From the NCBI GenBank assembly GCA_963708135.1, contig OY970192.1, positions 1,632,001 to 1,696,000 on the forward strand: DNA of 64,000 nt. Reading direction: 5' to 3'. The translations under genes were made by a program, and so were the position numbers. This DNA comes from an uncultured Gemmatimonadales bacterium (GTDB lineage Bacteria; Gemmatimonadota; Gemmatimonadetes; Longimicrobiales; RSA9). Positions within the stretch are counted from its first letter, which is position 1. Each line of letters starts with the position of its first letter. Positions 20,756 to 31,187 of the stretch are shown in pieces. The notes beneath the pieces are model-generated. The model did not search any database. It was not told the DNA's origin and saw only the letters and a list, made by a program, of their open reading frames with translations.

Positions 20756-21178
20756 GGGCCGCCGCCGCGCGCCCCGCCCCCGGGGCTCGGGGTCCGGCGG
20801 TCGGGGCGCGACGCTGTCCGTTTCTCGCGGCCTCGGACGTTGTGGAGTGGCATTCCGCCGGGACTCACCGCCTTGCGGAACGGTTGCATTCGTCCCAGGC
20901 TCCGGAACTCCGAGACAGCGATTCGTCAGATCGTGGCAGCCGAAGAAACGAAATCCTCGGCGGTCGCGCCACGGGCGCGGCTCGCCGGAAACGTCCTATC
21001 TCGTATCCCGACGCGACTCCGCCTCCCGTCACTCGGCACGCGTGGCCGGTGGTGTCGTCGCGCACTCAACCCCGGCGCGGCCTGGCCGTCCGGGACCGTG
21101 GGGCCGCTCCACGCACCCTTGGCGTGGGCCGGCCCCACACTTCATCTCACGCGGTCGAGAGACCAAAGGAGGAAGTTC

Positions 21179-24100
21179 ATGCAGCAACTCTCGCGTTGCG
21201 TCCCTCCGGGACGCGTGCGGAGGCGGGGAGCCGCAGTGCTCCTGGCGGCCTTCGCGGCGGTGGCCGCCCTTCTCTCTCCGGGGGCGGTACGGGCCCAGGC
21301 GGGCGAGGTGGGCGGCACCGTGGTGGCTGCGAACTCGCTGCAACCGTTGTCGGGGGCGCAGATCAGCGTCGTCGGGACGAACAACGGCGTGGTTGCCGGT
21401 CCGGACGGGCGGTTCGTGCTGCACGGCGTCGCAGGGGCGCAGGTCGAGCTGCAGGCGACGATGCTCGGCTACAAGACGGCGACGCAGACGGTGGCGGTCG
21501 GCACGATGGACGTGCGCTTCGAGCTGGCGCAGTCGGCGATCTCGCTGAACGAGCTGGTGGTGACGGGGACCCCGCAGGCGGAGCAGAAGCGGGCGCTCGG
21601 GAACGTGGTCTCGACAGTGGACGCCGCCGCGATCGTCGCGAAGGCGCCTGTAAGCACCGTAGACGAGGTGCTGAACGGGCGCGTGGCCGGCGTGAGCATC
21701 CTCTCCTCGACGGGCGAGGTCGGCGGCGCGAGCCGGATCCACATCCGCGGCGCGACGAGCTTCTCGCTTTCGAACACGCCGCTGATCTACATCGACGGCA
21801 TCCGGGTCAACAACTCCGAGGCTACGGGTCCGCAGACCCAGTCCTTCGGCTCGAGCACGATCTCGCGGTGGAACGACCTGGACCCGAACGAGATCGAGAG
21901 CATCCAGGTGATCAAGGGGCCGGCGGCCGCCACGTTGTACGGCACGGAGGCGGCGCATGGCGTGATCCAGATCATCACCAAGCACGGGCAGAGCGGCGCG
22001 CCCCAGTTTCACCTCCAGGTCAGGGGTGGCGGCAACTCGTTCAGCAACCCCGAGGGGCGGCTTTGGACCAACTATTTCATGGTCAACAATCAGCTCCAGT
22101 CGATCGATCTCACGCAGCTGGAGCAGCGCTGGACGGCGGCCGCGGACTCGATGGGCGTCTCGCCGACGATCTTCCGCACCGGCGGGCTGGCGTCGGCGGA
22201 CCTGAACGTCTCCGGCGGAAACGGCGGCACACACTACTTCCTCTCGGGCGGCCTCGAGCAGAACCAGGGCGTCGTCCCGAGCAACCAGGTCCGCAAGGGC
22301 AACGCGCGGATGAACGTCACGGTCACGCCGGGCGAGCACTGGTCCGCGAACGGCAGCTTCGGGTACGTGGTCGGCCGCACCGACATGGGGCCGGAGTCCG
22401 GCTGGGGCGGCATTCCGTGGACCACCTACTATATGCGCCCCGACAAGATCAACACGTACCACAGGGGCTTCTACAGCTACACGCCCGACGCGTACAACAC
22501 GGCCTTCCAGCTCTGGCAGGACCTGTCCCGCTTCACGGGGAGCGTGCAGCTGCACTACAACCCGACGTCGTGGTTCACGAACCGGGTGACGGTCGGTCTC
22601 GACCAGGTTCACCAGGGGGACAACGAAATCGACAAGAACGTGCCGCAGTACGCCTATCAGGACTCCTACTTCGCCATCGGCGGCCACTGGACGACGGCCT
22701 GGGACATCAACTACACGACGGTCGACTACGCGGGCAACATCACCGCCGACCTGAGTCCGAACTTCAAGTCAACGACGTCTATCGGCGCGCAGTACTACCG
22801 CAAGCACCAGGACTGGATCTCCGCGGGCAACTCGGACTTCCCGGTCCCCGGCCTCACCTCGATCACCGCCACGACCGGCCAGCCCGACCTGCCAACGGGT
22901 GACTACATCAACAACATCACGGCCGGGGTCTTCGCACAGGAGCAGATCGGCTGGCTGAACCGCCGCTTCCTGACCGTGGCGCTACGGCGCGACCAGAACA
23001 GCGCGTTCGGAACGAACTACGGGGCGGCCTACTATCCGAAGGTCAGTGGCTCCTGGGTTCTCACCGATGAGCCGTTCTTCCATGTCTCCGCGCTCAACAC
23101 GCTGAAGCTGCGGGCGGCCTACGGCGCAACGGGCGAGCAGCCCGACCAGTTCGCAGCGCTACGCACGTTCCAGCCCGTGCCAGGCCCGATTGGCGGCACG
23201 GTCACACCGCAGAACGTCGGCAACCCGGATCTCGGTCCGGAGCGCACGGCCGGGCTCGAGGCCGGCTTCGATGCGGGCGTGGCGAACGATCGGATCGGCA
23301 TCGAGTTCACCTACTTCAACCAGGTGACGAAGGACGCGATCCTGCTCCGGCAGATCGCTCCATCGACCGGTTTCTCCGGCAGCCAGTACGTGAACGCCGG
23401 ACGCGTGGACAACAACGGGCTCGAGGTGAACATCCACGGGTCGCCGATCGTGCGCCCCGCCTTCGGGTGGGACCTCGGCGTCAACTTCTCGACCAACAAC
23501 AACACGATCAAGAGCCTGGGTAGCGTGACCGACCAGAATTACGTCCAGGCCGGCAGCTACGTCCGCCACGAGATCGGCTACCCGGTCGGCTCCTGGTTCG
23601 AGAAGAAGCTGGTGAGCGCCACGCTGAACGCGGACGGCACGACCAGCAACCTGATGTGCGACAACGGCAGCGGCGGCACCGTCGATTGCGCCAACGCGCC
23701 GCAGGTCTTCCTCGGCCGCAACATCCCGAAGTTCCAGGGCGGCGTCAACAGCACGTTCACGCTGTTCCGCAACCTCGAGCTGTTCGGGCAGATCGACTTC
23801 GAGACCGGCTTCTCCAAGCTCGACGGGAACGAGCGCGTGCGCTGCTGGTTCTTTGCCGAGTGCCTGGCCAACTGGGATCCCACCTCGGCGGACCCGGTCA
23901 CGGTGGCAGGCTACCAGCACGACTTCGTGTCCGGCCTGATTCACAAAGCCGGCTTCGCAAGGCTGCGCGAGCTCTCGGCGACGTATCACCTCCCGCACTC
24001 GCTCACGCAGCGTCTCGGCGTGAATGGCGCCAGCCTGACGGTTGCCGGACGCAACCTCGCCATTTGGACCAAGTACCCGGGCCTCGACCCCGAGGCCACG

Positions 24101-24199
24101 TTCAACGGCGGCAGCCGCGGCGGCTCGTACAGCCTGTGGGAGCAGGACGTCTTCCCGCAGCTCGAGCAGTTCACCGCGACCCTCAACCTCACCTTCTGA
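21179..24199 (+). CDS. susC: SusC/RagA family TonB-dependent outer membrane transporter
   Basis: RBS AGGAGG; signal peptide; LNELVVTG, IHIRGATS, PLIYIDG, IESIQVIKGPAAATLYG.EAAHGVIQIITK, YPGLDPE; C-terminal F. Confidence 0.93.
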   Translation: MQQLSRCVPPGRVRRRGAAVLLAAFAAVAALLSPGAVRAQAGEVGGTVVAANSLQPLSGAQISVVGTNNGVVAGPDGRFVLHGVAGAQVELQATMLGYKTATQTVAVGTMDVRFELAQSAISLNELVVTGTPQAEQKRALGNVVSTVDAAAIVAKAPVSTVDEVLNGRVAGVSILSSTGEVGGASRIHIRGATSFSLSNTPLIYIDGIRVNNSEATGPQTQSFGSSTISRWNDLDPNEIESIQVIKGPAAATLYGTEAAHGVIQIITKHGQSGAPQFHLQVRGGGNSFSNPEGRLWTNYFMVNNQLQSIDLTQLEQRWTAAADSMGVSPTIFRTGGLASADLNVSGGNGGTHYFLSGGLEQNQGVVPSNQVRKGNARMNVTVTPGEHWSANGSFGYVVGRTDMGPESGWGGIPWTTYYMRPDKINTYHRGFYSYTPDAYNTAFQLWQDLSRFTGSVQLHYNPTSWFTNRVTVGLDQVHQGDNEIDKNVPQYAYQDSYFAIGGHWTTAWDINYTTVDYAGNITADLSPNFKSTTSIGAQYYRKHQDWISAGNSDFPVPGLTSITATTGQPDLPTGDYINNITAGVFAQEQIGWLNRRFLTVALRRDQNSAFGTNYGAAYYPKVSGSWVLTDEPFFHVSALNTLKLRAAYGATGEQPDQFAALRTFQPVPGPIGGTVTPQNVGNPDLGPERTAGLEAGFDAGVANDRIGIEFTYFNQVTKDAILLRQIAPSTGFSGSQYVNAGRVDNNGLEVNIHGSPIVRPAFGWDLGVNFSTNNNTIKSLGSVTDQNYVQAGSYVRHEIGYPVGSWFEKKLVSATLNADGTTSNLMCDNGSGGTVDCANAPQVFLGRNIPKFQGGVNSTFTLFRNLELFGQIDFETGFSKLDGNERVRCWFFAECLANWDPTSADPVTVAGYQHDFVSGLIHKAGFARLRELSATYHLPHSLTQRLGVNGASLTVAGRNLAIWTKYPGLDPEATFNGGSRGGSYSLWEQDVFPQLEQFTATLNLTF

Positions 24200-24211
24200 G
24201 CGGGGCTAGCC

Positions 24212-25495
24212 ATGAATTCGAACCACACGCGCAGAACGCTCCGCGAGGTGCTCCGGCCCGCCCGCTGGGGGCTGGCCGGCGCCGCGCTGGCGGCTCTGCT
24301 TGCCGGCTGTAACCTCCTGAAGGTGGACGCGCCGAGCCGGATCCCGGCCGACCAGCTCGCGTCTCCCAACAACGCCTCACTCCTCGTGCAGGGTGCCGTG
24401 GCGGATTTCGAGTGCGCGTACGGCGCATACGTCGGCCTCACGGCGGAGCTCTCCCACGAGATGGTGGATGCCACCGAGACCGCCGCCCGCTGGGTCTACG
24501 ACAAGCGGGACGTACACTCGAACGACGCGCTGTACGGCACCTCGGGGTGCGAGGCCCTGGGCGTCTACACGCCCCTGTCCACCGCCCGCTGGTCGGCGGA
24601 CAACATCCTGACCAAGCTCCAGGCCTGGAGTGACGCGGAGGTGCCGGACCGGCAGAAGCTGATCGCGACGGCTGCCGCATACGCAGGCTACGACTACCTG
24701 CTCCTCGGCGAGGGCTTCTGCAGCGCCGCGATCGACCTTTCGGCGCCGCTGACCTCGCAGGAGCTCTTTGCTCAGGCCGAGGATCGTTTCACCACCGCCA
24801 TCCAGGCCGCGCAGAGCTCGGGGTCTACCGACATCCTGAACCTCGCCTACGTCGGCAGGGCCAGGGCGCGACTGGACCAGGGCGACCTCCAGGGCGCCGG
24901 CGCCAATGCCGCGCTCGTTCCCGCCGGTTTCGAGTTCGACGCAACGGCGTCCGCATCCGCCAGCCGCCGCAGCAACCGCGTCTATGCCCAGAACGGGCAG
25001 AATCCGACCACCGGCGGCGAGGCGATGTCGGTGGACTCCGCCTACATCGATGTGATGTTCGACGGGGTCGCGGATCCGCGCGTTCCGGTGGTCGATGCCC
25101 ACTTCAGCACGACCAACGGGACGCCGATGTTCTATCAGCTCAAGTACAACTCGCTCTCCGATCCGATCCCGGTCGCGACCTACACGGAGGCGCAGCTGAT
25201 TCTGGCCGAGGCGGAGGGCGGGCAGCAGGCGGTCAACATCATCAATCAGCTGCACGATGCCGTCGGGTTGCCGCACTTCCAGAGCACGAACCCGGATTCC
25301 ATCGAGGCGCAGATCCTCTGGGAGCGGCGCAGCGCGCTGTGGCTCCAGGGTGAGCGCTTCTACGACATCCGCCGCATGAACCTGCCGCTCGTGCCGGCGC
25401 CTGGCGCGCCGTACAAGAACGGCGGCGTGTACGGCGACACGCGCTGTCTGCCGCTTCCGGACGTGGAGACCAACAACAACCCCAACGCCGGCTGA
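24212..25495 (+). CDS. susD: RagB/SusD family nutrient uptake lipoprotein
   Basis: LLAGC lipobox; EAQLILAEA, ERRSALWLQGERFYDIRR, LPLPDVE..NNPN; follows SusC. Confidence 0.9.
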   Translation: MNSNHTRRTLREVLRPARWGLAGAALAALLAGCNLLKVDAPSRIPADQLASPNNASLLVQGAVADFECAYGAYVGLTAELSHEMVDATETAARWVYDKRDVHSNDALYGTSGCEALGVYTPLSTARWSADNILTKLQAWSDAEVPDRQKLIATAAAYAGYDYLLLGEGFCSAAIDLSAPLTSQELFAQAEDRFTTAIQAAQSSGSTDILNLAYVGRARARLDQGDLQGAGANAALVPAGFEFDATASASASRRSNRVYAQNGQNPTTGGEAMSVDSAYIDVMFDGVADPRVPVVDAHFSTTNGTPMFYQLKYNSLSDPIPVATYTEAQLILAEAEGGQQAVNIINQLHDAVGLPHFQSTNPDSIEAQILWERRSALWLQGERFYDIRRMNLPLVPAPGAPYKNGGVYGDTRCLPLPDVETNNNPNAG

Positions 25496-25522
25496 GCCGT
25501 TCCGGCCGGTCCTGACAGGCGA

Positions 25523-25560
25523 CGGCCCCCGCACCGCGAGGTGCGGGGGCCGCTTCGTTC
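25523..25560 (+). terminator. Rho-independent terminator after susCD
   Basis: CGGCCCCCGCACC-GCGA-GGTGCGGGGGCCG followed by CTTCGTTC. Confidence 0.75.
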
Positions 25561-25614
25561 CCGGCCGGGTGTTGGCGCGCCGCACGGCTACTCGCGCGGC
25601 CGCGGGCTGCAGCC

Positions 25615-26082
25615 TCAACCGCGCGCTCCCGCCTCCCGCAGCAGCGGAGGGAGGAAGCGGGCCCCGGCGCCCCCCCTCCGCGCCGCGTCGCCGGGATTCG
25701 AGACGGCGCAGCGGTCGAGCGAGAGACAGCCGCACCCGATGCACGAGTCCAGCCCGTCCCGCAGCGCGACCAGCGCCTCGATCTGCTCGTCAAGCCGCGC
25801 CCGCCAGCCGCGCGAGAGACGGGTCCAGTCCGCCCGCGTGGGCGCCCGGCCGCCCGGAAGCTGCGCCAGCGCCTCTCGCACCTCGTCCAGACTCAGCCCG
25901 ATGTTCTGCGCCGCCCGCAGGAAGGCCAGCCGCCGCAGCACGTCGCGCCCGAAGCGACGCTGCCCGCCGCCGGTGCGCGTGGCGGCAATGAGCCCCTCGC
26001 GCTCGTAGTAGCGCACGGCCGAGGCGGCCAGCCCGCTGCGCGCGGCGACCTCGCCGACGGCGAGGGTGTTGGAGGTGGTCAT
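25615..26082 (-). CDS. soxR: Redox-sensitive transcriptional activator SoxR
   Basis: MerR HTH VGEVAARSG..SAVRYYE; RTGGGQRRF; [2Fe-2S] motif CIGCGCLSLDRC; NPGD. Confidence 0.96.
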   Translation of the reverse strand: MTTSNTLAVGEVAARSGLAASAVRYYEREGLIAATRTGGGQRRFGRDVLRRLAFLRAAQNIGLSLDEVREALAQLPGGRAPTRADWTRLSRGWRARLDEQIEALVALRDGLDSCIGCGCLSLDRCAVSNPGDAARRGGAGARFLPPLLREAGARG

Positions 26083-26091
26083 GTCGGCCCC

Positions 26092-26122
26092 TTGACTTGA
26101 AGTTGACTTCAACTTGTAAGAT
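26092..26122 (+). promoter_or_regulatory. SoxR-activated promoter (SoxR box in a 19-bp spacer)
   Basis: -35 TTGACT (26092), 19-bp spacer overlapped by the dyad TTGAAGT-TG-ACTTCAA, -10 TAAGAT (26117). This is classic MerR geometry. Confidence 0.88.
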
Positions 26123-26156
26123 GGGGGGACGACGCTCACGACACAAGGAGAGAGAC

Positions 26157-26855
26157 ATGCGCACGGCCCTCATCACCGGCGGCTCCCGCGGCCTCGGCCG
26201 CGCCATCGTCCATGCCCTCGCCCGGCGGGGCTGGTCGGTCATCCTCGACGGGCGCGACGCCGCCGTCCTGCGCGCGTCCGTAGCGGCGCTGCCGGCGGGC
26301 CGCGTTCGCGCGCTCGCCGGGGACGTCACGGACGCGGTGCACCGGGAGGCCCTGCTCTCGACGGCGCGGGAGCTGGGCGCGCTGGACCTGCTGTGCAACA
26401 ACGCCAGCGCGCTCGGTCCGAGCCCGCTCCGGGAGCTGGCCGTCTACCCGCCGGCGGAGCTCGCCCGGGTGCTGGAGTCCAACCTGCTCGCGCCGCTGGC
26501 GCTCATGCAGGGCACGCTGCCGATGCTGGCGGAGGCCGGCGGCACGATCGTGAACGTGAGCTCGGACGCGGCGGTGGAGGCGTATCCGGGCTGGGGCGGC
26601 TACGGCGCGTCGAAGGCGGCGCTGGATCGTGTCTCGGCGGTGCTGGCGGCCGAGCGGCCGGCCGTGCGGGTGTACGCGTTCGACCCCGGGGACATGCGCA
26701 CGGAAATGCACCAGCGTGCCTATCCCGGGCAGGACATCTCGGACCGGCCGGAGCCGGAGACGGTGGTCCCTTCCCTGCTCCGGCTGCTGGAGGAGCGGCC
26801 GCCGAGCGGACGCTACCGCGCGGCAGACCTCCGTCCGGCCTCGGTTTTCCCGTGA
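26157..26855 (+). CDS. Short-chain dehydrogenase/reductase
   Basis: TGGSRGLG, NNAS, NVSS, YGASK, DPGDMRT; RBS AAGGAG. Confidence 0.92.
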   Translation: MRTALITGGSRGLGRAIVHALARRGWSVILDGRDAAVLRASVAALPAGRVRALAGDVTDAVHREALLSTARELGALDLLCNNASALGPSPLRELAVYPPAELARVLESNLLAPLALMQGTLPMLAEAGGTIVNVSSDAAVEAYPGWGGYGASKAALDRVSAVLAAERPAVRVYAFDPGDMRTEMHQRAYPGQDISDRPEPETVVPSLLRLLEERPPSGRYRAADLRPASVFP

Positions 26856-27919
26856 ACGCCGGGTCCGCCGGTCCCCATCGGGCCGTGAAGTCGGGTCTCC
26901 CGCGGGAGCCGGTGGCGACGACACCGCCGGAGGCGAGAGGGCTGGCCAGGGATGAGGTCCGGCTCCTCGTCGCCGGACCGGGCGGTGCCATACACACGCG
27001 GTTCCGCGCCCTGCCGCGCTTTATCCGGCCCGGCGACCTGCTGGTGGTCAACACGTCGGCCACCTTGCCGGCGGCGGTGGACGCGCGCCGGGACGACGGC
27101 GCGCCGGTGACCGTTCACGCCTCCACGTCGCTGGATGATGGAAGCTGGCTGGTGGAGGTGCGCCCGCCCGGCCACGCCACGGGCCCGCTGCCCGACGCGC
27201 GGCGCGGCGAGCGTCTCGCGCTTCCGGGCGGCGCGCGGCTGACGCTCGAGGCGGCGTACCCCGACCAGGCGGCGGAGCGCTCCCGGCTATGGCGGGCGCG
27301 GATCTCGGGGGCCGCGGGGCTGCGCGGGATCCTCGCGCGGCACGGGCGGCCGATCGCGTACGCCTACGTGCGGGGGCGCTGGCCGCTGGCGGCGTACCAG
27401 GCGGTCTTCGCGCGGCACCCCGGGAGCGCGGAGATGCCGAGCGCCGGCCGTCCGTTCAGCCGCCGGCTGGTGCGTTCGCTGCTTGCCCGCGGGGTCGGGA
27501 TCGCGCCTGTGGTGCTGCACACGGGCGTGTCCTCGGGGGAAGGTCCGCTTCCCGAGCCGTTCCGGGTGCCGCGAGGCACTGCCCGGCGGATCGAGGCGGT
27601 GCATGCGGCCGGCGGGCGCGTCATCGCCGTGGGAACGACCGTGACGCGCGCCCTGGAGACGCTCGCGGCGGAGGACGGGACGGTGCGCCACGGCGGCGGC
27701 TGGACCGATCTGGTGCTTGGGCCGCGGCGTCCGGCGCGGGCGGTGGACGGGATCGTGACCGGGTGGCACCCGGCGGGTGCATCGCACCTGGAGCTGCTCG
27801 CGGCCGTGGCCGGGCGCCGGCTCGTACGCCGGGCGTACCGCGCGGCGCGCGCCGCGCGGTACCTGTGGCACGAGTTCGGGGACAGCGCGCTGTTCCTGCG
27901 CGCTACTTCGGGAGCGTGA
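26852..27919 (+). CDS. QueA-like protein (SAM:tRNA ribosyltransferase-isomerase fold, divergent)
   Basis: RDEVRLLV, GDLLVVNTS, YQAVFA, VGTTVTRALET, FGDSAL; non-canonical EMPSAGRPF / LHTG / GWH / YLWHEFGD motifs; GTG overlaps the SDR stop. Confidence 0.85.
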   Translation: MNAGSAGPHRAVKSGLPREPVATTPPEARGLARDEVRLLVAGPGGAIHTRFRALPRFIRPGDLLVVNTSATLPAAVDARRDDGAPVTVHASTSLDDGSWLVEVRPPGHATGPLPDARRGERLALPGGARLTLEAAYPDQAAERSRLWRARISGAAGLRGILARHGRPIAYAYVRGRWPLAAYQAVFARHPGSAEMPSAGRPFSRRLVRSLLARGVGIAPVVLHTGVSSGEGPLPEPFRVPRGTARRIEAVHAAGGRVIAVGTTVTRALETLAAEDGTVRHGGGWTDLVLGPRRPARAVDGIVTGWHPAGASHLELLAAVAGRRLVRRAYRAARAARYLWHEFGDSALFLRATSGA

Positions 27920-30900
27920 CCGGCGCCTGCCCTGCGGCGCGCAAGCGGGCGTTCAGGGCGTCGAGTCCGGTGGTGGAGAGCGCGGTCCACTTCGGCAGCA
28001 CGCCCTGCAGCTCGGCGCGCGCCGCGGCGGCCTCCGCCACCTCGCGCGCGGTCGGGGCGACATCGGCGCCCTGCATGGCCATAGCGGCGCCGAGCAGCGC
28101 GGTCGCGGCGCTGCGCAGACTGGGCGGCCCCGATGGCGCGGCGCGGAAGAAGAAGCCGCGGCGGGCCGAGGGCGCGGGCGCGAGGGCCTCGACCTTCGCC
28201 TTGAAGGTCTGGACATCGCTGCCCTGGAGCGAGTCGAGTGCGGCCACGAGCGCCCGCGCCCGGGCGTAGGCCGCATGGGCCTGGACGGCGCCGTCGTACA
28301 TCTCGCGCGAGAGGGAGGCGAGGCGGGCGAGGTCGGCGGGCGGCGTTTTCACGCGCGGATCGAGGCGCAGCGTGAGCGGCCGCGTGAACTGCCGTCCCGC
28401 CACCGTCAGCCGCACGGTATAGCGCCCCGGCGGCGCCCAGGGCGCCTGGACCGACGGGTAGGTGCGGTGGGGCACCGCGGCTCCGCCCTCGGCACGCGGC
28501 TCCTCGCCATCGACGGGGTCATACTTGAGGTCCCAGCTGAAGCGGTGCATCCCGGCTCCGGTGGAGAGGGTCATCTGCGGCGCGGCCCAGTAGAGGGGCA
28601 CGTCGCAATCGGGTGCGCCGGGGTTGCGCTGGCACACCTCGTCGTAGGCGGCGGGATCGGTGCCCGGGTCGGGCTCGAGCACGGGATCATGGCTCGAGTA
28701 GGAGCGGATCACCTTGCCGCCTGTGTCCAGGATGTCCAGGGTCACGGGTCCCGACGTCGCGTGCGCCAGGTAGTAGTCGATGATGCCACCGGGGGGCGGG
28801 TTCTCCCCGGCCGGCAGCTCGGGCGGCCAGGGCGTGGGGTCGTTGGTGCCGAAGCGCACGCGCACGGCCGTCTCGGGCCTGAAGAGGTAGGCGGTGCTCG
28901 CCGCCTCGGCCTCGGCCGCCTGCCGCAGCGGCGTGACGTCGTCGAGGATCCAGAAGCCGCGGCCGTGGGTCCCGGCCACGAGGTCGGAGCAGAGGCAGTG
29001 GTCGTCGTCCTTCACCTGGATGTCGCGCACGGAGACGGCGGGCATGTTCAGCCGCAGCGAGCGCCAGTGGTCGCCGTCATCGAAGGACACCCAGACCTGG
29101 GCGTCGGTGGCGGCGTAGAGGAGGCCCTTCCTGCGCGGGTCCTCGCGGATCGAGTTGGCCACCGCGCCGGGCGCGATCCCGGTGTCGATCTCCGTCCAGG
29201 TCCTGCCGCCGTCGTGGGTGCGCCAGAAGTGCGGGTTCATGTCGTCGATCCGCATCGTGTTGGCGGCGGCGTAGGCGGTGAGCGTGTCGAAGTGGCCGGC
29301 ATCCATGTTGAAGATGCGGGTCCACGGCTTCACGGCGGGAGGCGTCACGTCGCTCCAGTGGGCGCCGCCGTCCATGGTGACCTGGATGTTGCCGTCGTCG
29401 GTACCGGCCCAGAGCACGCCCACGCCGAGCGGCGAGGGCGCGAGCGCGGTGATCACGCCCTGCGGCGAGACCTCGACGTCGCTCGCGTACTTCCCCGCGC
29501 TGGCCGGCACCTTCCAGGTCTTGCGGGAAAGGTCGGGGCTGATGCGCGTCCAGGTGTGCGCGTGGTCCGTCGTCTTCCAGACGGCGTCCGACGTGTAGAA
29601 CAGCACGTCCGGATCTGCCGGAGACCACTGCAGCGGCATGGTGCGCACGTTCCGGTTGTACGGCCCGCCCCGCGGCCCCATGTCCGGCCCGACGTTCGTC
29701 GTCTGCCCCGTCTTCCGGTTGTAGAGCGAGACGTTGTTGCGGCTGCCGCCGTAGACCATGTCGGGGTCGTTCGGGTCGGGCGCGGCGATACCGTACTCCT
29801 GGATGTTGACGGGGTGCCAGTCGTGGAAGGTGATCTCGCCGTCCATGGAGCGGCTCTCGACGCAGGCGGAGCCGGAGTCCTGCTGGCCGCCGCAGAGGCG
29901 GTAGGGGAAGGCGTTGTCCGCGGTGACGTGGTACATGGCGGCCGTGGGCTGGGTGTACCAGTTGCTCCACGAGGCGCCGCGGTTGCCGGAGACCACCGCG
30001 CCCTGGTCCGCCACGGCGAGGATGATGTTCGGGTCGTTCGGGTTGATCCAGATCTTCTGGTAGTCGTCGCCGCCCGGCGCGCCGCGCACGGCGCTCCACA
30101 TGCGGCCGCCGTCCTCCGTCCGCCACATGACGACGGAAGCGCTGTAGACCACGTTCGGGTCCTTCGGGTCAATGGTGATGGTCGGCAGATCGCCGCCGCC
30201 GATACGGCGCAGGGGACGCGGATCGGCGACCCCGTCGCCGGCATCCTTCGCCGCCGGGTCGTCCACGGCCTGCCAGTGCGCGCCCGCGTCGGTGGAGCGG
30301 TAGAGGGCGACGACGCCGGTCGTGCCACCGTCGCGTCCCGCCCCCGTGGCGGCCGACCGCTCCGGCGTCACCGCGGCGATGGCGTAGACGATGTCGGGGT
30401 TGCTCGGCGCGATGGCCAGGTTGGCCTCGATCACCTGCGGCAGGCCGGCGCTCAGCTGCGTCCAGGTGGTGCCGCCGTCGGTGGACTTGAAGATGCCGTT
30501 GCCGGTGCCGCCGAACTCGCCGCTCTCGCGGAAGCTCTGCTGCTGCTGCCAGAGCGTGGCGTACACGACGCTCGGGTCGGCGGGGTCGATCAGCACGTCG
30601 TTGCCGCTCGTGTACTCATCCTTGTAGAGCACCTTCTCGAAGGTCTTGCCGCCATCGGTCGAGCGGAAGATCCCGCGCTCCGGGTTGGGGCCGTAGGGGT
30701 GGCCGAGCGCCGCCACGAACAGCCGGTCCGGGTTGGTGGGGTCCACGGCGATGTTGGCGATCATCTGCGTCTCGTCGAGGCCCAGGTGCGTCCACGTCGC
30801 GCCCGCGTCCGCCGACCTGTAGACGCCGTCGCCCGTGGACAGGTCGGGGCGGATGATGCCGGCGCCGGTGCCGACGTAGATCAGGCTCGGGTTGGTGGGC

Positions 30901-31187
30901 GCGACCGCGATGGCGCCGATCGAGCCGGTGGCCTCGTTGTCGAAGAGCGGATGCCAGGTGGAGCCGTAGTCGGTCGAGCGCCAGACGCCGCCGTTGTCGA
31001 AGCCGACGTAGAAGACGTTGGGCTGGCCGGGCACGCCGGAGAGCGCGCGGGCGCGGCCGGCGCGGGGCGGACCGATCTGGCGCCAGCGCATGCCGGAATA
31101 CAGGTCGGGCGCCTGCGCCGCCGCGAGCGAGGCCGAGGCGGCGAGCAGGATCAGGGTGAGGGTCGCTCGGAAGAGGGCTGTGCGCAC
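27903..31187 (-). CDS. Secreted BNR/VPS10 (sortilin-like) beta-propeller glycosyl hydrolase
   Basis: Signal peptide; WRQIGP.RAGR; many SxDGGxTW Asp-boxes; GGQQDSG, GTHGRGFWILDD. Confidence 0.88.
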   Translation of the reverse strand: MRTALFRATLTLILLAASASLAAAQAPDLYSGMRWRQIGPPRAGRARALSGVPGQPNVFYVGFDNGGVWRSTDYGSTWHPLFDNEATGSIGAIAVAPTNPSLIYVGTGAGIIRPDLSTGDGVYRSADAGATWTHLGLDETQMIANIAVDPTNPDRLFVAALGHPYGPNPERGIFRSTDGGKTFEKVLYKDEYTSGNDVLIDPADPSVVYATLWQQQQSFRESGEFGGTGNGIFKSTDGGTTWTQLSAGLPQVIEANLAIAPSNPDIVYAIAAVTPERSAATGAGRDGGTTGVVALYRSTDAGAHWQAVDDPAAKDAGDGVADPRPLRRIGGGDLPTITIDPKDPNVVYSASVVMWRTEDGGRMWSAVRGAPGGDDYQKIWINPNDPNIILAVADQGAVVSGNRGASWSNWYTQPTAAMYHVTADNAFPYRLCGGQQDSGSACVESRSMDGEITFHDWHPVNIQEYGIAAPDPNDPDMVYGGSRNNVSLYNRKTGQTTNVGPDMGPRGGPYNRNVRTMPLQWSPADPDVLFYTSDAVWKTTDHAHTWTRISPDLSRKTWKVPASAGKYASDVEVSPQGVITALAPSPLGVGVLWAGTDDGNIQVTMDGGAHWSDVTPPAVKPWTRIFNMDAGHFDTLTAYAAANTMRIDDMNPHFWRTHDGGRTWTEIDTGIAPGAVANSIREDPRRKGLLYAATDAQVWVSFDDGDHWRSLRLNMPAVSVRDIQVKDDDHCLCSDLVAGTHGRGFWILDDVTPLRQAAEAEAASTAYLFRPETAVRVRFGTNDPTPWPPELPAGENPPPGGIIDYYLAHATSGPVTLDILDTGGKVIRSYSSHDPVLEPDPGTDPAAYDEVCQRNPGAPDCDVPLYWAAPQMTLSTGAGMHRFSWDLKYDPVDGEEPRAEGGAAVPHRTYPSVQAPWAPPGRYTVRLTVAGRQFTRPLTLRLDPRVKTPPADLARLASLSREMYDGAVQAHAAYARARALVAALDSLQGSDVQTFKAKVEALAPAPSARRGFFFRAAPSGPPSLRSAATALLGAAMAMQGADVAPTAREVAEAAAARAELQGVLPKWTALSTTGLDALNARLRAAGQAPVTLPK

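Follow-up and report, generated by a model that had tools for sequence, protein, structure and literature searches.

Our analysis concerns a three-gene locus in a 64,000-nucleotide (nt) stretch of contig OY970192.1 (positions 1,632,001 to 1,696,000; assembly GCA_963708135.1) from an uncultured Gemmatimonadales bacterium. This whole stretch is called the window here, and positions are counted from its first letter. At the locus, a gene for the redox sensor SoxR is divergent from a two-gene operon that encodes a short-chain dehydrogenase/reductase (SDR) and a protein with the fold of the queuosine enzyme QueA, referred to as QueA-like or as the paralog. The genes and the promoter, all found where the first-pass annotation had placed them, are the following (lengths in amino acids, aa).

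25615-26082, minus strand: soxR, encoding a MerR-family [2Fe-2S] redox-sensing activator of 155 aa (TIGR01950, Pfam MerR domains, cluster motif).

26092-26122, plus strand: SoxR-box promoter with −35 TTGACT, a 19-nt spacer with a dyad, and −10 TAAGAT (sequence, position weight matrix).

26157-26855, plus strand: SDR gene, encoding a classical short-chain dehydrogenase/reductase of a dedicated subfamily, 232 aa (PF00106).

26852-27919, plus strand: QueA-like gene, encoding a QueA-fold paralog of 355 aa (PF02547, Foldseek, tree).

The sequence AAGGAG (26145-26150) lies 6 nt 5′ of the SDR ATG (26157), and the GTG start of QueA-like overlaps the TGA stop of SDR as GTGA. The gene 3′ of QueA-like (27903-31187, minus strand) is convergent; the operon therefore comprises two genes.

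The SoxR protein scored 194.9 bits against the NCBIfam equivalog TIGR01950 (cut-off 116.9) and was the only match over that cut-off in the whole genome. The Pfam families PF13411, PF00376 (MerR helix-turn-helix) and PF09278 (MerR DNA-binding) were matched as well. The C-terminal [2Fe-2S] motif of SoxR is defined as CX2CXCX5C, and the cluster motif in the translation is CIGCGCLSLDRC. The promoter begins 9 bp past the soxR start codon. Its −35 element (26092-26097) and −10 element (26117-26122) are separated by the 19-nt spacer (26098-26116), with the dyad reading TTGAAGT (26097-26103)-tg-ACTTCAA (26106-26112), so that the divergent MerR-type promoter described in the first-pass annotation is present as read. 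This is the arrangement of SoxR targets, in which an 18- to 19-bp spacer holds a palindromic soxbox, and oxidized SoxR is described as activating such long-spacer promoters via the soxbox (available text of PMC4146615). A scan of 25400-28300 for sigma-70 promoters with 16- to 18-nt spacing returned no sites, as expected from the 19-nt spacer.

To score the box across the genome, we used a position weight matrix of 31 columns, trained on 32 promoters of related loci with an adjacent soxR. Over both strands of the entire 5,445,952-bp genome, the window site scored 51.3 and the runner-up 12.6, and the box of this operon is thus the only strong one. Given a single box and a single SoxR over the cut-off, the predicted SoxR regulon consists of the SDR/QueA-like operon alone, plus probably soxR itself, as the soxR leader must cross the box. 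Taken with the conservation described below, SoxR very probably controls the operon. The promoter also shares 28 of its 31 positions with the promoter of locus L006 in a Thermoanaerobaculia metagenome-assembled genome (MAG); the soxR, SDR and paralog of L006 are 72%, 67% and 64% identical to their window counterparts. This resemblance suggests that the cassette is transferred between phyla in one piece.

The pairing of SDR with QueA-like was examined in two sets of loci. The first set consisted of the best 80 of at least 594 relatives. The second was taken from a class sample of 301 Actinomycetes genomes, evenly drawn from the class of the Amycolatopsis genome G001, and comprised 79 loci, with the unpublished G024 and G249 and the fragmentary G302, G038, G227 and G282 excluded. 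An SDR ortholog of 48-68% identity stands directly upstream of the paralog at 79 of the 80 first-set loci, the exception being L066, and at all 79 class-sample loci. In 60 of the 79 first-set pairs the SDR stop shares 4 nt with an in-frame start of the paralog, and in 73 the distance from the SDR stop to the start of homology is at most 120 nt; the SDR stop reads ATGA or GTGA at 75 of 79 class-sample loci. Translational coupling of the two genes, as noted earlier for the window, is therefore seen here and at orthologous loci. An SDR profile built from 27 orthologs and searched at E ≤ 1e-50 found the ortholog in 84 of the 301 genomes. These are all of the paralog carriers except G282, which holds only a fragment, and the ortholog was found in 0 of the 216 other genomes. 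The co-occurrence that had been set as a check on the pair thus amounts to 84 genomes with both genes and none with SDR alone, and the two proteins are almost certainly obligate partners. A complex prediction for SDR and QueA-like gave a score of 0.00, which weighs neither for nor against this partnership. We also considered fused forms. Among 29 long proteins, 13 carried both PF00106 and PF02547, each a single-member cluster from one contig; these were not counted as true fusions, because a single wrong base where the genes overlap as ATGA/GTGA would yield read-through.

The regulatory region is conserved along with the pair. Upstream sequence was usable at 77 of the 80 first-set loci (L066, without SDR, and the truncated L074 and L075 were excluded), and a box was called when its score lay above the 99.999th percentile of background. 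By this measure 64 of 77 loci have a SoxR box before the pair, in the same register as in the window. A divergent soxR is adjacent at 33 loci, all 33 of which have the box; among the 44 loci lacking an adjacent soxR, 31 have a box and 13 have none. Three genomes checked among those without an adjacent soxR (G001, G002 and G003) encode a SoxR over the cut-off elsewhere. In the class sample, 76 of 79 loci were usable (L131, L158 and L193 are truncated). A box was found at 51 of these, 44 loci have an adjacent soxR, 7 have a box and no adjacent soxR, and 25 have no box. The conservation of the SoxR box, which the first-pass annotation had proposed to check, thus holds at 64/77 and 51/76 orthologous loci in several phyla. 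A SoxR-type switch is borne out by a box that is unique in its genome and is kept before orthologous operons also in genomes that have their soxR at another site.

The box-less loci revealed a second arrangement. All 25 of those in the class sample (L161, L167-L169 and L171-L191) have a divergent upstream gene for a cytoplasmic sensor kinase with GAF and HisKA_3 domains, and this gene was found at 0 of the 54 other class-sample loci, including the 51 that bear a box. As every box-less class-sample locus has the GAF kinase, the enzyme pair appears to be wired to one of two alternative sensors. In that respect the earlier reading needs correcting: the pair is not bound to SoxR itself, as 25 of 76 class-sample loci have the kinase and no box. 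A related order of genes, with kinase, NarL/LuxR-type response regulator, SDR where present, and paralog, was found at L064, L066, L069, L082 and L194, the last from G336, a genome of the window's phylum. The kinase-linked loci (for example L161, L167, L175 and L176) have recurrent CCTAGG(A/G/C)C-type words upstream of SDR and, immediately 5′ of the SDR start, share the element GTTCCTA(G/C)(C/G)(G/T)T; judged by eye, the words are a candidate response-regulator site and the element a candidate −10 region.

QueA-like belongs to the QueA family and stands apart within it. It matched PF02547 (Queuosine_synth) with 214.7 bits against a gathering threshold of 25 and aligned over its full length with the QueA structures 1vky, 1yy3 and 1wdi at 26-30% identity. 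An AlphaFold2 model (predicted local distance difference test score 77, predicted template modelling score 0.80) matched 1yy3, 1vky and 1wdi in Foldseek with E values of 5.7e-20 to 5.8e-19, the next match being at 4e-2. The protein thus has the same two-domain fold as QueA. Its scores fall below the QueA equivalog cut-offs (NF001140 / TIGR00113; 152.8 versus 324, 119.9 versus 267.45 and 65.6 versus 588), however, and in a tree from a quick IQ-TREE search, a branch of length 0.82 with a Shimodaira-Hasegawa-like approximate likelihood ratio support of 100 divides 37 paralogs from 30 canonical QueAs of the window's phylum. The phylogeny that had been called for therefore places QueA-like outside the canonical clade. 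In a search of 5.8 billion proteins, the best 120 listed matches were 58-69% identical to QueA-like; those with names carry the label “S-adenosylmethionine:tRNA ribosyltransferase-isomerase,” and their named hosts are mostly Actinomycetota, plus Longimicrobiales and Thermoanaerobaculia. In a representative library clustered at 50%, 8493 clusters matched at E ≤ 1e-3, of which 570 reached E ≤ 1e-30. All of the 150 best representatives listed scored above 190 bits, and the subfamily accounts for at least 150 representatives.

The alignment indicates where the two clades differ. A HMMER alignment to 1vky and 1wdi showed that the QueA motifs PLPPYI, APTAGLHF, LHVG, NFHLP and YRFxSYGD are replaced by PIAYAY, EMPSAGRPF, LHTG, GWHP and YLWHEFGD, respectively, and the replacements are kept across the subfamily. 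With these swaps, the scores under the equivalog cut-offs and the separate clade, the view that this QueA homolog is noncanonical held up. An alignment of 18 members gave the subfamily signatures GSAEMPSA(G/A)RPF, LH(T/A)GVSS, (T/S)GWHxxGxSHL and Y(L/R)WHE(F/L/M)GD. In the joint alignment of the two clades, 37 positions are conserved at 90% or more in both, including H48, G61-D62, N67, Q183-T184, L222-H223, V260-G261-T262-T263, R266, E269, H306 and G343-D344. A further 16 positions are conserved within each clade and differ between them (QueA-like/canonical): V36/S, T71/V, H89/L, Y170/P, E194/A, M195/A, S197/T, R200/L, S228/T, G304/N, S311/T, H312/L, W339/F, H340/Y, E341/S and F342/Y. Thus, QueA-like has gained the charged or histidine residues H89, E194, R200, H312, H340 and E341. 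Most of the switched positions lie in loops that follow β-strands of the α/β domain in the AlphaFold2 model, and the available text on 1VKY describes an unassigned ligand near the C-terminal ends of several strands (PMC1282579). As judged from this alignment and model, the core of the QueA family is kept, and loops predicted to be on the substrate side are remodeled with new His, Glu and Arg residues. Because the conserved core is kept, QueA-like probably still binds S-adenosylmethionine (SAM) and carries out ribosyl-transfer/isomerase-type chemistry. The window protein is itself unusually basic (pI 11.6, net charge +22, compared with a subfamily median pI of 6.4), and it lacks three residues, in the loop after LHTGVSS, that are found in 17 of 17 aligned relatives.

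The partner protein is a classical SDR by its motifs. It matched PF00106 with 128.4 bits and no NCBIfam model at its cut-off. The motifs TGGSRGLG, NNAS and S...YGASK were read, and T7, G8, G12, G14, N82-A83, S136, Y149 and K153 are invariant in the 27 orthologs, which are 52-66% identical. The Rossmann TGxxxGxG motif, NNAS and the Ser/Tyr/Lys catalytic residues are those of classical SDR carbonyl reductases. In contrast to these, the window SDR shares with its orthologs a C-terminal region that is specific to the subfamily and strongly conserved, in which DPGD is invariant and the stretch AFPGEDISDRP is conserved; in the class sample its gene was never found without the QueA-like gene. The closest solved relatives (ketoreductase 6YC8, sepiapterin reductases 1NAS/1SEP and YciK 3F1K) are generic carbonyl reductases and give no clue to the substrate.

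Does QueA-like take part in queuosine synthesis? A canonical queA, with tgt behind it, is found elsewhere in the genome of the window, at ~539.5-543.5 kb (G000:C1) and so outside the window range of 1632001-1696000, and these genes are the only PF01702 match and the only other PF02547 matches in the genome. The earlier statement that the window contains no tgt or que genes therefore stands for tgt and for other PF02547 genes; for the remaining que genes no dedicated scan of the window was made. Between profile positions 83 and 85, a 1.65-kb tandem array (G000:C1:539821-541457; L005 1322-2967), in which a 234-bp unit is repeated 7.0 times (98% matches), splits the canonical queA. The two parts of queA, N-terminal and C-terminal, do not share a reading frame, and tgt is intact just downstream. 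The 234-bp unit has 37 matching places in the genome, with more arrays near 3.232 Mb and 4.709 Mb, and the interruption may be genuine, caused by a dispersed repeat, or may stem from a fault in the assembly. A check for a canonical queA/tgt elsewhere in the genome had been suggested, and it found the pair with queA in this interrupted state.

In the window's phylum, PF02547 was matched in 81 of 81 sampled genomes, 80 of them over the cut-off (the sample includes G000, the window genome, and the unpublished G362). Only two of these genomes, G000 (213 bits) and G336 (247 bits), gave a second match at the level of the paralog. The latter is accordingly rare in this phylum, where it was probably acquired horizontally. 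Among five named paralog hosts, PF01702 was not matched in Amycolatopsis G001, Kribbella G003 and Trebonia G005. In the 301-genome class sample, 85 genomes carry the paralog and 54 carry tgt, all 54 being among the 216 other genomes, so that no genome has both. Paralog profile scores were at least 336 bits in 84 of the 85, and the remaining one is a fragment. The counts include the unpublished G024 and G249; without them the paralog is found in 83 of 299 genomes, still with no TGT overlap. No canonical-level QueA match was found in the 301 genomes, and no PF01702 relative, DpdA-type included, was found in the 85 that bear the paralog. The scores below the cut-offs, the separate clade, the presence of a queA-tgt pair of its own in the window genome and the 0 of 85 carriers with TGT thus uphold the proposal that the QueA homolog does not serve queuosine synthesis, and we hold this conclusion with high confidence. 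In sum, QueA-like resembles QueA in fold, in full-length alignment and in the common conserved positions, and it differs from QueA in that it is never found with TGT in the class sample, has an obligate SDR partner and is driven by stress sensors.

These data are consistent with a working model of the cassette. In this model, redox-cycling compounds would oxidize the [2Fe-2S] cluster of SoxR, which would then activate the promoter with its overlong 19-bp spacer and so the transcription of the translationally coupled two-gene operon; this mechanism is inferred by analogy with described SoxR proteins. SDR would act as an NAD(P)H-dependent carbonyl reductase, on a carbonyl or a quinone. QueA-like, as a neofunctionalized enzyme, would apply SAM-dependent QueA-type chemistry to a non-tRNA acceptor and not to preQ1-tRNA. 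In the reaction of QueA itself, the ribose of SAM is opened and joined to an amine, with release of adenine and methionine, according to the available text of PMC5699537 and PMC9092360. The pair would most likely process a redox-active small molecule. SDR could carry out a two-electron reduction, after which the product would be trapped with a C5 unit derived from SAM; in an alternative order, SDR would reduce a carbonyl-bearing product of the QueA-like enzyme. To the reading of the locus as a three-gene redox-switched cassette whose obligate enzyme pair processes a redox-active small molecule, we assign a probability of about 0.45. That QueA-like would act, with SAM, on a small non-tRNA acceptor in defense against redox-cyclers is a suggestion that falls somewhat short of even odds. 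More tentative again is the proposal that QueA-like is the first QueA-family enzyme to work on a small molecule, with SAM supplying a carbocyclic unit (epoxy-cyclopentanediol-type) that derives from its ribose, and that together with the NAD(P)H reductase it forms a widespread “reduce-and-conjugate” or carbocycle-forming module switched by SoxR or a GAF sensor kinase.

Several observations weigh against this interpretation. The box is absent at 13 of 77 and 25 of 76 loci, and given the GAF-kinase loci, a redox-cycler need not be the inducer in every genome. In the 80 first-set loci, neither transporter genes nor other detoxification genes show a consistent linkage to the pair. PF01702 was matched in two of the five named paralog hosts, Nocardia G002 and the Thermoanaerobaculia MAG G004, and the window genome likewise has both TGT and the paralog; the exclusion of the two in the class sample carries a Fisher p value of 2e-9 with kinship ignored. 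The canonical QueAs of the tree and of the joint alignment came from the window's phylum only, and midpoint rooting places the representatives P0270 and P0285 on the side of the canonical sequences. The PDB matches of QueA-like include no SAM-bound QueA structure. Among sequencing runs, the listing gave one soil-metagenome DNA run, with a 0.10 share of the sampled words, and no RNA run. Finally, the median isoelectric point (pI) is 6.4 both for the paralogs and for the canonical, tRNA-binding QueAs, and net charge is likewise no discriminator; charge and pI were consequently dropped as a test of tRNA binding, since the clades do not differ.

We considered other explanations of the same data. 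The pair might be biosynthetic and not detoxifying: QueA-like would turn SAM and water or a simple metabolite into a ribose-derived carbocycle, SDR would reduce its carbonyl, and the product, formed under stress, would be a small protective or signaling metabolite. The self-contained nature of the pair, with no conserved transporter or further enzyme nearby, accords with this, as do the perfect co-occurrence and translational coupling, which fit consecutive steps, and the presence of two sensors, SoxR and the GAF kinase, on one pair, which fits a general stress effector better than a compound-specific detoxifier. QueA is, moreover, described as a route from SAM to a cyclopentane “C-ribomimetic” in the available text of PMC9092360. 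However, no such product is known, the SoxR regulons described in the available text of PMC4146615 act on the inducing compounds, and the gain of His, Glu and Arg in the pocket is equally compatible with an external acceptor. We therefore regard a biosynthetic role as unlikely, while counting it ahead of a continued role in nucleic acid modification, which we consider improbable. In the latter, the paralog would place a SAM-derived ring on another amine-bearing tRNA or rRNA base under stress, independently of TGT. It retains the full two-domain QueA architecture, including the β-barrel insert, and its overall charge resembles that of canonical QueA; yet an obligate NAD(P)H reductase partner is unexpected for such an RNA modification, 0 of 85 host genomes have TGT or any PF01702 relative, DpdA-type included, and the substrate-side motifs are replaced.

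Two further accounts fare worse. The split of canonical queA by the 1.65-kb array, with its parts in different frames beside an intact tgt, would give the paralog an opening as a back-up or replacement QueA for queuosine in this organism. This is very improbable, as the subfamily hosts lack TGT (0 of 85), the paralog scores far under the QueA equivalog cut-offs and always travels with SDR and a stress sensor, and G336, the second carrier in the phylum, also has an apparently normal canonical QueA. That the SoxR box arose as a palindrome by chance, with the operon outside SoxR control, is hardly credible: although the −10 element TAAGAT is imperfect and the SoxR site is a predicted one, the box is a single outlier in the genome (51.3 versus 12.6) and recurs in the same register at 64/77 and 51/76 orthologous loci in several phyla.

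Compared with known systems, the redox-switched SDR/QueA-like cassette has both familiar and unusual features. The physiological role of SoxR regulons outside the enterics is still debated. Nonenteric regulons are described as small sets of transporters and small-molecule-modifying enzymes in the available text of PMC4146615. Like those of Pseudomonas aeruginosa (PA2274 / MexGHI-OpmD / PA3718) and Streptomyces coelicolor (six genes), as far as the source text available describes them, the regulon predicted here is a very small redox-enzyme set, a single operon, with a soxbox in a long-spacer promoter. In contrast, the six S. coelicolor targets given in the same text include no QueA-family gene, no monooxygenase or pump is linked to the operon here, and the same operon is under a two-component system in many genomes. 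A full-text literature search returned no link between SoxR and the QueA family and no description of a QueA paralog; it did not cover the 2008 Science survey of predicted SoxR regulons, which may list the pair. The QueA reaction is among the oddest SAM reactions known, and we know of only one described substrate for it, preQ1-tRNA.

That the locus represents a real, widespread and misannotated system, in which a QueA-family enzyme is an output of a nonenteric SoxR regulon, is well supported. Public records label a large sister clade of QueA as the queuosine enzyme, yet it is hosted by genomes unable to make queuosine (85 of 301 sampled Actinomycetes species), and at minimum a systematic misannotation is corrected. 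Perfect pairing with one SDR and two alternative dedicated sensors makes for a compact system of two enzymes, two cofactors and one promoter. If the ribosyl unit of SAM does go to a small molecule, this would be a new use of SAM and a new kind of output for SoxR regulons.

Beyond soxR or the GAF kinase, no conserved neighbors of the pair were found in the 80 first-set loci, the commonest being an ABC ATPase (12 of 80). In the window, two large plus-strand open reading frames of 1119 aa and 427 aa lie upstream (20840-25495). The convergent open reading frame at 27903-31187 encodes 1094 aa with a signal-like N-terminal stretch and overlaps the QueA-like stop by 17 nt. From their translations, the 1119-aa and 427-aa products look like an outer-membrane receptor and its lipoprotein partner, and the 1094-aa product looks like a secreted repeat protein.

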